A stretch of DNA of 64,000 bases. Source: a virus. Lineage: Duplodnaviria; Caudoviricetes. The notes below the pieces were generated by a model. It did no database searches, had not been told where the DNA came from, and worked only from the letters and a program-made list of their open reading frames with translations. This document shows positions 29,957 to 32,648 of this stretch, in pieces. The position numbers were made by a program, and so were the translations under genes. The number at the start of each line of letters is the position of its first letter. Positions within the stretch are counted from its first letter, which is position 1. The DNA lies in the IMG/VR virus record IMGVR_UViG_3300044709_000179, positions 1-64,000 of that record. One strand, given 5' to 3'.

Positions 29957-30255
29957 GCCAAGACAGGATTTCCCTAACTCAGGTCAATGCCCGACCGACC
30001 CACGCAGTCGGCGACCCCCGAAGCCCGACGCGTTATCAGGTTTGCGCCAACGATGAGGCCGTCGGCTACGTATTCTCTCGCTCGTCGGAATCTTGGGGCA
30101 CCAGCTCAAACGGACGCATCCGGACAACATTTCGTGGCTATTCGCGATCATGGGGCGCCGATTATGTCGATGGCACGCTGGTTACGAAGTGGGCTTGCAG
30201 TCGCAGGCGGGCCGTCAAGGATCTGATCGACTATCACCGGAAGGCGGTTCAGTGA
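29953..30255 (+). CDS. Hypothetical protein
   Basis: Coupled. Confidence 0.55.
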   Translation: MSQDRISLTQVNARPTHAVGDPRSPTRYQVCANDEAVGYVFSRSSESWGTSSNGRIRTTFRGYSRSWGADYVDGTLVTKWACSRRRAVKDLIDYHRKAVQ

Positions 30256-30473
30256 GCCAGCAGCACCGCAACACGCAATTCACGTCGGTTAGCGTGACGC
30301 CGGAGGCGCGGGCTGCGCTCCGGAGGGCGACGGTTCACCTTTCGGCTGAGTGCGACAAGCGGCTAAGCATGTCCGAGGCGATCGTCATCATGGGACAGTT
30401 GGCACTCCGCCTTGGGTACGACCGCATCACCGAATGCGCGCGCGATGTCGGCGTAATCCCCGCGAATGACTGA
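30252..30473 (+). CDS. Ribbon-helix-helix-like regulator
   Basis: TSVSVTPEAR..LRR.......R.SMSEAI. Confidence 0.55.
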   Translation: MSQQHRNTQFTSVSVTPEARAALRRATVHLSAECDKRLSMSEAIVIMGQLALRLGYDRITECARDVGVIPAND

Positions 30474-30544: not shown

Positions 30545-30696
30545 TCACCGTTGGCCGTTGCGACTGACCGCCTCGTCGACCTCGGGCACGTGGGTCATCG
30601 ACCACACCCGCCACGCGTTCACCTCGTCGTTGACGGTCTTGCCGGGGCAGAGGCAGCACCAGCCGAGCACGACGTGCGAGGGGATGCTGTGGCCGA
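30545..30696 (-). pseudogene. 3' part of small gene interrupted by tnpB element (5' part at 32055..32090)
   Basis: Joining at GGGAT|GCTG gives a 58-aa ORF with GGGAGG RBS. Confidence 0.5.
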
Positions 30697-32054
30697 TGCC
30701 GGTAGACTGGAGGCATTCCCCGAGCCACCGCGAGGCAACGTGAACGAAGGTAGCCGCCCTGTCGGCGAGGCTGCTGAATGCTGACCGGCCGCCGCTACCT
30801 GCTCTCGTTCACCAACGAGCAGGCCGACTACGCCGAAACCGTCGGCAACGCCTGTCGCGCCGCGTGGAACACTGCACTGGAGCAGCGCCGTGAGTACCGG
30901 CGGCGCGGCGCGTTCATCTCATATGTGGAGCAATCCCGGCAGCTAGCCGAGGCCAAGAAGGACCCATTTTGCGCCTGGCTAGCCGATGTGCCGCACTGTG
31001 CACTACAGCAGACCCTTCGAGACCTTGAGCGCACCTGCAAGGCACACGGAACGTGGAAGGCGCGCTGGCGGTCCAAGGTGCGCACCGCCCCATCGTTCCG
31101 GTTTCCTGATCCCGCGAAACTCGCGGTGCGTCGCCTGAATCGCCGTTGGGCTGAGGCTCGTCTGCCGAAGTTCGGCTGGGTTCGCTTCCGCTGGACTCGC
31201 CCGCTCGGCGGCACGATCCGCAACGCCACAGTCTCCCGCGACGGCGGACGCTGGTACATAGCGTTCTGCGTCGAGGATGGCGTGGTCGAGGTTGCCCCCA
31301 ACGGCAGGCCCGCAGTTGGGGTCGACCGAGGTGTCGTGACTGCGGTTACCACATCTGACGGCGAAATGTTCGACCGCGGGTCGATGACCACCGGCGAGGC
31401 AAAGCGTCTGAAGCGACTCCAGCAGCAGTTCGCGCGTCAGGAGAACAAGCGGTCCAGCCGTCGCAAGGCTACGCGCGGCGAACTGGCTGTACTCAACGCC
31501 CGAATTCGAGCGCGCCGGGCCGACTTCGCCGCACAGACCGCCGTTCGATTGATCCGTAACTACGGCCTGATCGCCGTCGAGGATCTGCGGGTGAAGAGCA
31601 TGGCGGCTAGTGCAAGGGGCACCGTCGAGAGGCCCGGCAAGAACGTGCGGCAGAAGGCCGGGCTCAACCGCGCGATCCTTAACAAGGGCTGGGGCGGTTT
31701 CCTACTCAAGCTCGAACGCGCCGCCCGCTACCACGGCGCGACGGTGGTCAAGGTCCCACCCGCGTACACGTCGCAGACCTGTTACGCCTGCAAGCATGTG
31801 GATCCGAAGTCCCGCGAGAGCCAAGCGGTCTTCAGGTGCACGGCCTGCGGGCATCAGGACCACGCCGACGTGAACGCGGCGAAGAACATCCGTGAGCGAG
31901 GGATTGAACTCGCTTCCGCCGCAGGGCTTGCGGTGGCAGGGCGTGGAGACCTCGGCGTTGGCCGGTCCGCGAAGCGCCAACCACCCGTGAAGGTCGCAGC
32001 ATGAACGCGGCCGATGGGCGGGAATCCTCGTGGCACCCGCGAGGTGGAGGTCAA
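30686..32054 (+). mobile_element. Non-autonomous IS200/IS605 (IS1341-type) element, tnpB only
   Basis: Right-end hairpin 32026-32044 then GGAGGTCAA; degenerate related hairpin ~30715-30735; no tnpA; left boundary uncertain. Confidence 0.7.
30778..32004 (+). CDS. tnpB: RNA-guided endonuclease TnpB
   Basis: VGVDRGV, IAVEDL, TSQTC..C, CTACG...HADVNAA; all three RuvC acidic residues present. Confidence 0.95.
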   Translation: MLTGRRYLLSFTNEQADYAETVGNACRAAWNTALEQRREYRRRGAFISYVEQSRQLAEAKKDPFCAWLADVPHCALQQTLRDLERTCKAHGTWKARWRSKVRTAPSFRFPDPAKLAVRRLNRRWAEARLPKFGWVRFRWTRPLGGTIRNATVSRDGGRWYIAFCVEDGVVEVAPNGRPAVGVDRGVVTAVTTSDGEMFDRGSMTTGEAKRLKRLQQQFARQENKRSSRRKATRGELAVLNARIRARRADFAAQTAVRLIRNYGLIAVEDLRVKSMAASARGTVERPGKNVRQKAGLNRAILNKGWGGFLLKLERAARYHGATVVKVPPAYTSQTCYACKHVDPKSRESQAVFRCTACGHQDHADVNAAKNIRERGIELASAAGLAVAGRGDLGVGRSAKRQPPVKVAA

Positions 32055-32074
32055 GCTGTGGCCGAGAGGGATGC
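31880..32074 (+). ncRNA. TnpB omegaRNA (scaffold to TCAA 32054 + ~20-nt guide); 5' end approximate
   Basis: Known overlap of omegaRNA with tnpB 3' end and right end. Confidence 0.55.
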
Positions 32075-32252
32075 CGACGCCGTCGGGCATCTGGTGCCTC
32101 CCGTCGGGAATTGCAACGGCCCCAGCCTGTGGGGGCCGGGGCCAGAGACGATCCGGGCTGACAACTGCCGGCTAGGCCGGGTGTCCCGCAATGCGGTACT
32201 GCCAGTGGGTCCCGCAATCGCAGGTTCAGGATACGCCGTGGGGTGCGACCGG

Positions 32253-32648
32253 TCACGCCGGTTCAGCCTCGCGCGTCGTGCACGCCTCGCACGCACACGG
32301 ACGGATCTCGATCAGCGCACTACGCCAGTGGCCATCCCGCGAACTGTAGTGCTCGTTGGCCCAGGTCTGCGGTTGGATCTGGAAGTCGATCGGTAGCCCC
32401 GTCATCTCCTTGCCGAGCGCCGCGAACGCCAGCGTGATCGCCGCCAGTTTCGGATTACCCTCGGCGTTGTGGATGCGCCCGAACCGCTCCTCGAACTCGT
32501 CATCGTCCATGATGAGCCGCACGTCCACGTCGCGCCAGTCCTTCGTCTTCAGCGACGACCCGACGTGGTAGGCGACAGACCCGAAGTAGTCGCGGACGAT
32601 GGTGCCGAACTTGTGCAGCCAGATGCCGGCGGGCATGCCTGTGCTCAT
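32253..32648 (-). CDS. Minimal Pol-beta-type nucleotidyltransferase
   Basis: VGSS..RDVDV..IDFQ. Confidence 0.7.
   Translation of the reverse strand: MSTGMPAGIWLHKFGTIVRDYFGSVAYHVGSSLKTKDWRDVDVRLIMDDDEFEERFGRIHNAEGNPKLAAITLAFAALGKEMTGLPIDFQIQPQTWANEHYSSRDGHWRSALIEIRPCACEACTTREAEPA

Follow-up and report, generated by a model that had tools for sequence, protein, structure and literature searches.

IS200/IS605-family elements of the ISDra2/IS608 type carry a Y1 transposase (TnpA) and the RNA-guided nuclease TnpB, use TTGAT or TTAC as target and end on the right with TCAA. The guide portion of the omegaRNA is the flanking DNA 3′ of that right end (PMC8612924; bioRxiv 2023.03.14.532601). Cleavage by ISDra2 TnpB falls at position 15 of the non-target strand and at positions 20–21 of the target strand, producing 5′ overhangs (PMC8612924), and repair of a cleaved empty allele from an element-bearing genome is the established route of TnpB homing and retention (bioRxiv 2023.03.14.532601), which has been shown in engineered E. 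coli assays. Cleavage needs a heteroduplex of about 12–16 bp, binding tolerates mismatches beyond approximately position 8 (bioRxiv 2026.01.09.698545), and TnpB with a guide of 10 nucleotides (nt) binds without cutting (PMC13507860). Here we analyze a tnpB element of this family in a 64-kb stretch of phage DNA (the window), which forms the first part of the 118,071-bp IMG/VR viral record IMGVR_UViG_3300044709_000179 (estimated 97% complete, 68% G+C). Just upstream of its tnpB gene, at the left junction, lies a near-copy of the predicted guide that lacks six nucleotides, and we tentatively read this near-copy as a scar of break repair.

The junction repeat and the element that carries it

The element and its flanks comprise the following features, numbered by position in the window.

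30545–30685, minus strand: C-terminal (3′) part of a small phage open reading frame (ORF), codons IPSHVVLGWCC...NGQR-stop, with homologues P0001–P0003 at 80–86% identity
30681–30685, plus strand: GGGAT, the TnpA target, which resembles a target-adjacent motif (TAM) and abuts the insertion; on the minus strand, Ile-Pro of the conserved GHSIP motif
30686–30696, plus strand: GCTGTGGCCGA, seed-only self-site, a copy of guide/target positions 1–11 and their sole second copy in 118 kb
30697–30701, plus strand: TGCCG, matching target positions 18–22 after a 6-nt gap; its T completes a second GAT (30695–30697), and its GCCG would also be the start of the left end, provided that the canonical spacing holds
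30698–30777, plus strand: left end of the element as placed by the canonical 20-nt spacing, with a degenerate subterminal hairpin (30718–30735) and a TANNNT-like TAGACT (30703–30708)
30778–32004, plus strand: tnpB, 408 amino acids (aa), RuvC triad and zinc finger intact
31885–32054, plus strand: predicted omegaRNA scaffold and right end, conserved, with compensatory stem changes, overlapping the 3′ end of tnpB
32055–32076, plus strand: original target and omegaRNA guide template, positions 1–22, with a second GGGAT at target positions 14–18
32055–32102, minus strand: 5′ part of the small phage ORF (MPDGVGIPLGHS, ATG 32090–32088) and its GGGAGG ribosome-binding site (RBS, 32102–32097)

At the left junction GGGAT is followed by GCTGTGGCCGA and then directly by TGCCG. 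At the right junction the order is TCAA (32051–32054), GCTGTGGCCGA (32055–32065), GAGGGA (32066–32071) and TGCCG (32072–32076). A repeat search recovered this pair (repeat D3), with likeness extending to the GAGG that precedes the junction tetranucleotide. GCTGTGGCCGA occurs exactly twice on both strands of the full record, each time at a junction, and the next best sites carry one mismatch and lie elsewhere. Since base composition predicts 0.18 copies per genome, chance does not explain a second copy that follows a GAT precisely at the left junction. The TGCCG block after the 6-nt gap is real and, by itself, weakly significant, with an estimated chance occurrence of about 1–3%.

No guide-prefix match longer than 8 nt was found in the 1.5 kb upstream of any of 23 close relatives, no junction repeat is present in Saccharomonospora phage PIS 136, and a scan of approximately 70 tnpB loci for such a repeat returned only left/right-end hairpin repeats. 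The repeat is real, non-random and peculiar to this copy, and its absence from all of these loci identifies it as the product of an event and not a family feature. A 13-nt repeat in one relative (L021) was considered as an analogue and rejected, as it lies 70 nt beyond the right end. An assembly artefact is an unlikely source, the repeat (11 nt, with a 6-nt gap) being presumably shorter than assembler k-mers. The rule that IS200/IS605 elements make no target-site duplication is violated here by the 11-nt direct target repeat at both junctions, which we take to be a secondary product of repair and not of transposase chemistry.

The right boundary is defined by GAAT (32022–32025), an 8-bp hairpin (32026–32044), TGGAGG and TCAA. 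Downstream of tnpB, conservation among the relatives runs through ...GGGAAT, the hairpin and AGGAAGTCAA, and the flanks diverge immediately beyond; in the 17 relatives that were aligned (of roughly 23 close copies examined), sequences are conserved up to ...GGAAGTCAA and then diverge abruptly. Because this conservation stops at TCAA, a right end at 32054 and a guide start at 32055 are well supported by the comparison with about 20 relatives, from Micromonospora. The last 170 nt are very highly conserved in an 18-sequence alignment, with 8 pairs showing compensatory changes in the predicted stems, and no Rfam family matched the omegaRNA region at a permissive threshold.

The phage carries a single tnpB, whose product contains the Pfam domains HTH_OrfB_IS605 (PF12323), OrfB_IS605 (PF01385) and Cas12f1-like TNB (PF07282). 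Full-length alignment to solved TnpB structures (8bf8/8h1j and others) places the RuvC D/E/D residues and both CxxC pairs in register (motifs GVDRG, AVEDL, DHADVNAA and CxxC...CxxC), and as judged by these aligned catalytic residues the nuclease is intact. A sequence-only reading of the window had described the near-copy with its 6-nt gap, placed the right end and guide start at the same boundary, and called the RuvC triad intact; its coordinates for the repeat are exact, and the relatives and solved structures bear out the other two points.

The closest relatives of this TnpB (72–77% protein identity) are multi-copy in Micromonospora, Dactylosporangium and Microbispora genomes and also occur on one viral contig. 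In most of them tnpA lies upstream, its stop overlapping the tnpB start, whereas a search for Y1 tnpA (PF01797) gave no match anywhere in the 118-kb phage. Since these host-borne relatives carry tnpA, mobilization of the element in trans by a host tnpA is conceivable. The nearest phage TnpB, in PIS 136, is 55% identical and belongs to a full IS605 element with clean junctions, and megablast of the locus against 50,697 phage records gave no match. The best copy in genome, viral and metagenome contigs has 77% amino-acid identity, and no sister copy is therefore at hand from which to take the left-end boundary. Apart from its unusual left junction, the element is an ordinary IS200/IS605-family tnpB-only derivative.

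Elsewhere in the phage, beyond the window, queC (81539–82153 of the full record, E 1e-70) indicates that a 7-deazaguanine pathway is present; no DpdA-like gene was detected with the Pfam TGT model at E ≤ 0.001.

The interrupted gene and the left end

Deletion of 30686–32054 restores, as the sequence-only reading had proposed, a 58-aa minus-strand ORF that starts MPDGVGIPLGHSIPSH, with the GGGAGG RBS 6 nt before its ATG (CCTCCC, 32097–32102, on the plus strand). Two other deletions also yield in-frame ORFs, of 56 aa (..GIGHSIP..) and 62 aa (..PLGHSIGHSIP..), and the reading frame alone is therefore not decisive. All three metagenomic homologues (80–86% identity) read (I/V)PLGHSI(P/S)SH, which identifies the 58-aa form as the intact allele. 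By this sequence comparison the original target is the ungapped copy on the right, and the one on the left is derived. The TAM and target fall within LGHSI, the best-conserved motif in the N-terminal part of the small protein, the GAT of the TAM being the codon of its invariant Ile, and this placement makes homing against phages with the intact allele plausible.

The small gene is truly broken, judging from its two remaining parts. On the right, its first 12 codons and the RBS now read into the element, giving a 78-aa minus-strand ORF (31854–32090) that runs antisense to the 3′ end of tnpB and the right end, so that phage-operon transcripts would include RNA complementary to the omegaRNA scaffold. 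On the left, no in-frame ATG, GTG or TTG precedes the GTG at 30670, and the C-terminal part does not appear to be rescued from the left end; the left copy was considered as a replacement N-terminus and rejected, because the frame, though open through the left end, has no such start codon and no RBS.

The small ORF gave no match by tblastn against phages; searches of viral contigs, of four related viral records containing a neighbouring gene, and of 401 Micromonosporaceae genomes did not recover it either. The neighbour, a 131-aa gene adjoining the small ORF (32253–32648, minus strand), has 63–74% identical homologues in these four IMG/VR records (58–133 kb). Both the small ORF and the element are absent from all four, which marks the small ORF as an accessory gene that varies within this group of phages. 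The locus also lies beside a convergent junction: the upstream plus-strand genes (30093–30473) run to 30473 and the minus-strand operon runs down to 30545, with no terminator detected by scanning between these positions. The plus-strand tnpB is antisense to the minus-strand operon, and read-through from the upstream plus-strand gene could also reach it.

In the relatives, the left end begins directly after NTGAT in 13–14 of 16 copies, the exceptions being CCGAT and TCGAC, and 20–21 nt separate the cleavage site from the left-end hairpin. In the phage element, the homologue of this hairpin occupies 30718–30735; its 3′ arm, CCGCGAGG (30728–30735), equals 32037–32044 of the right-end hairpin and stands in a similar context, and only 5 of 8 pairs form. 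A second GAT, at 30695–30697 (CCGAT, 30693–30697), which the sequence-only reading had not noticed, lies 20 nt ahead of the hairpin homologue. The canonical spacing thus fits CCGAT and not the GGGAT junction, and CCGAT serves as target in one relative (L006). On this spacing the left end would start at 30698, leaving 12 extra nucleotides (30686–30697) that equal target positions 1–11 plus a T, which suggests, by analogy with the relatives, that 30686–30697 is duplicated target DNA and not transposon end. The repeat by itself leaves the inserted segment ambiguous between 30686–32054 and any 11-nt-shifted equivalent. As for the TAM-like NNGAT proposed earlier, GGGAT is indeed in place and the family does use a GAT-type TAM, but GGGAT is a near-cognate motif by sequence and not the family consensus, NTGAT.

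Two alternatives bear on this placement of the left end. First, the target gene may already have contained a 12-nt tandem duplication (TGCTGTGGCCGA twice, ..PLGHSIGHSIP..) that made CCGAT, at which a canonical element then inserted. This would keep the 20-nt left-end spacing with ordinary transposase chemistry, the 62-aa ORF that it implies is in frame, and the use of CCGAT has the precedent just mentioned. However, the duplication occurs in none of the three homologues at the protein level, and it would be an unlikely coincidence for the element to hit the very junction of a duplication that was rare and independent; we give this account very little credence. Second, the block could belong to the transposon, whose left end would then begin GCTGTGGCCGATGCCGG. 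The element would have resided earlier in a variant allele (..GCTGTGGCCGAT/GCCGACG.., the GIGHSI form; slashes denote junctions) or at the second GGGAT, would have been excised from an upstream GAT together with 12–18 nt of old flank, and would have been re-inserted by TnpA at the GGGAT of an intact allele. Removal of 30686–32054 restores exactly an attested allele, as expected of a clean TnpA insertion, and both GGGAT sites look like legitimate targets. Against this, the route takes at least three TnpA-dependent steps and, with hundreds of GAT sites available, would have to lead back to the same 20 bp, the GIGHSI allele is found in 0 of 3 homologues, the phage has no tnpA, and the linker to the hairpin would measure 32 nt compared with 20–21 nt in all relatives, so that we regard a transposon-borne block as distinctly improbable.

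TTGAT/GCCGGT in L005 was rejected as a left end, as it lies within the coding sequence of another tnpB-like gene. L005 is a tnpA-less copy that interrupts (at about 1360–1440) a sequence whose translation resembles the N-terminal part of another, unrelated TnpB-like gene (..FPRRRRGLMPVRWHHATFGIDGRRVRIP..), so that one tnpB element would be inserted into another. Two natural tnpB-only (IS1341-like) copies with 71% aa identity (L014:1405 and L017:1358), both from one metagenome-assembled genome of an uncultured actinomycete, have a different left-end type (CCTCGCTGSGATGCGCAA...) after CTGAT or TTGAT, again with a hairpin spacing of 20 nt. L006 and L024 represent the same insertion in two Micromonospora assemblies, with an identical CCGAT left flank and a near-identical right flank, GGACACCCCGACCACCC, and are probably one orthologous, vertically inherited copy at a non-consensus CCGAT target.

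Origin of the left-hand guide copy

A secondary event is needed to explain the left junction because the family transposase makes no target duplication. The account that we favor, while granting it somewhat less than an even chance, is that the left near-copy is a repair scar: the target was duplicated during break repair, and the self-target so formed was later disarmed by a 6-nt deletion. The element, which lacks tnpA, has a decayed left end and interrupts a conserved 58-codon phage gene just 3′ of GGGAT, would have been copied into, or restored at, its site in the course of break repair and not through a clean TnpA reaction. The proposed chain is that: (i) a canonical copy would have been present at GGGAT/GCCGGTAGAC...TCAA/GCTGTGGCCGAGAGGGATGCCGACG, with its left end starting at what is now 30698; (ii) an empty allele, either on a co-replicating genome or left after excision (junction GGGAT/GCTGTGGCCGAGAGGGAT), would have been cut by TnpB–omegaRNA; (iii) repair would have copied the element from the right, while on the left side a filled-in end finishing ...GGGATGC(C) would have annealed the newly copied strand through the 9-nt microhomology GGGATGCCG instead of through proper homology; (iv) target positions 1–18 would in this way have been duplicated to the left of the element, forming with the GCCG of the left end a TAM and a perfect 22-nt self-target; and (v) this self-target would have been cut by the element's own nuclease, with survivors arising by a 6-nt deletion of positions 12–17 between GA repeats.

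Two sequence features bear directly on these steps. GGGATGCCG is present at both proposed annealing partners, namely the TAM with left-end bases 1–4, and target positions 14–22. The 6-nt gap corresponds to positions 12–17 and is bounded by GA (10–11) and GA (16–17); it straddles the position-15 non-target-strand cut of ISDra2 TnpB, and the match ends at position 22, near the target-strand cut. As a reconstruction from a single sequence, the two-step chain would account for the 11-nt block, the position of the gap, the TGCCG block, the canonical spacing and the clean right junction. The lack of a Y1 tnpA in the phage and the degenerate left hairpin also make upkeep by recombination, rather than by transposition, plausible. 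The TAM-like motif and 11-nt seed that remain could, going by published TnpB behaviour, be bound and not cut. The sequence-only reading had offered a cleavage-escape scar or allele, homing against related phages, and autorepression of the tnpB promoter as possible explanations, and of these the escape scar fits best, given the location of the gap and its GA boundaries.

Several points weigh against the repair scar. This is a single case, with no DNA sequence of an intermediate, a sister copy or an empty allele to set beside it. The boundary of the left end is set by a spacing analogy and a degenerate hairpin, an nhmmer profile of the relatives' left ends gave no match in the window, and the similarity between left and right ends is not significant by shuffling. 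GGGAT departs from NTGAT at position −4, and efficient TnpB cutting at this motif is presumed. The seed rules and cut positions are taken from orthologues of this TnpB, ISDra2 TnpB being an estimated ~30% identical. Guanines in the phage DNA may be modified (7-deazaguanine, from queC), which could alter TnpB cleavage. Finally, the same intermediate could arise by recombination between insertions at the two GGGAT sites, or by tandem duplication followed by excision.

The last point against the scar is that one-step end joining would yield the same final sequence. In this alternative, end joining, or a GA microhomology, would have attached the element to a broken end that kept 11 nt of target, leaving an 11-bp duplication that resembles a target-site duplication; a full self-target would never have existed, no later escape deletion would have occurred, and TGCCG would be coincidental. 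Besides giving a sequence identical to the two-step product, this account agrees with the weak significance of the TGCCG block by itself, and it explains the length of the repeat, as a junction retaining 12 nt or more would be re-cut and survivors with 11 nt or fewer would be expected. However, it leaves without explanation both the 9-nt identity GGGATGCCG and a gap placed exactly on the expected cut zone with GA/GA microhomology. We consider one-step joining unlikely, though the least so of the alternatives.

A further alternative is that the left-hand copy is a selected regulatory site, at which active TnpB–omegaRNA would bind the TAM and 11-nt seed and either repress tnpB and omegaRNA or shield the junction. 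An 11-nt match has the length used in Cas9 tracr-L autorepression (bioRxiv 2020.05.21.102756), and the binding of TnpB with a 10-nt guide without cutting (PMC13507860) makes such occupancy biochemically possible. The site at 30681–30696 also lies 82–97 nt ahead of the tnpB ATG and 7–22 nt ahead of TAGACT (30703–30708). Nevertheless, the RNA-guided autorepression suggested by the sequence-only reading finds no direct support: the feature is not conserved, being missing in the 23 relatives, in PIS 136 and at the approximately 70 loci; a sigma-70 promoter and terminator scan found nothing, so that no promoter was located; the TAM is non-consensus at −4; and the origin of the duplication is explained without selection. 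We therefore consider a regulatory function improbable.

Comparison with known systems

The phage element shares with ISDra2/IS608-type elements its TnpB domains and catalytic residues, the GAAT–hairpin–TCAA right end, a family TAM of NTGAT, an omegaRNA lying over the 3′ end of tnpB, and a guide taken from the right flank. It differs in that neither the element nor the phage contains tnpA, the left hairpin is degenerate, the TAM is GGGAT, and an 11-nt direct target repeat is present in a family that makes none. The nearest full copies, in Micromonospora and phage PIS 136, have tnpA and no flanking repeat. The IS1341-type tnpB-only elements, among them L014 and L017, resemble the phage element in carrying no gene besides tnpB, in the length of the left end (about 100 nt), and in having its right end and omegaRNA. 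In L014 and L017, however, TGAT joins the left end cleanly, a well-formed hairpin follows after 20 nt, and the guide is not repeated.

With TnpB/IscB homing and retention (Meers et al., bioRxiv 2023.03.14.532601; "restorative / non-restorative homing", PMC13565253) the locus shares a guide identical to the element's own donor joint. As with homing endonucleases, the target lies in a conserved coding motif, and a pool of phage genomes offers homologous templates. Homing as described there proceeds by homologous repair and leaves no scar, whereas the left junction here shows part of the target in duplicate and has lost 6 nt, which we infer to reflect imperfect repair and then escape. We found no natural footprint of TnpB homing in the literature searched, in particular none of imperfect homing repair or of a transposon that had escaped its own cutting. 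Should the scar reading hold, this one junction records RNA-guided cleavage in a phage, microhomology-assisted repair, self-targeting, and an escape deletion at the cut zone, and it provides a search image for more cases, namely a TAM followed by 11 nt or fewer of the guide at the left end.

Finally, the left-hand site resembles those of Cas9 tracr-L (bioRxiv 2020.05.21.102756), TldR (bioRxiv 2023.11.30.569447) and TnpB with a 10-nt guide (PMC13507860) in having an approximately 11-nt, TAM- or PAM (protospacer-adjacent motif)-flanked match near the effector gene that is long enough to bind and too short to cut. The tracr-L and TldR sites are conserved and shown to repress, whereas here there is a single copy with a non-consensus TAM and a negative promoter scan; and compared with the 10-nt-guide TnpB, it is the match in the DNA that is short and not the guide that is truncated. 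By analogy with these systems, there is a small chance that the seed-only, TAM-flanked self-copy acts as an operator for active TnpB, at which the omegaRNA complex would bind without cutting and either tune tnpB and omegaRNA expression or mark the occupied allele as self. If the site were bound and regulatory, a repressor function would have arisen from an active nuclease without any change in the protein, and the phage element would represent a natural intermediate on the way from selfish TnpB nucleases to domesticated TldR-type repressors, with a repair scar as its origin.

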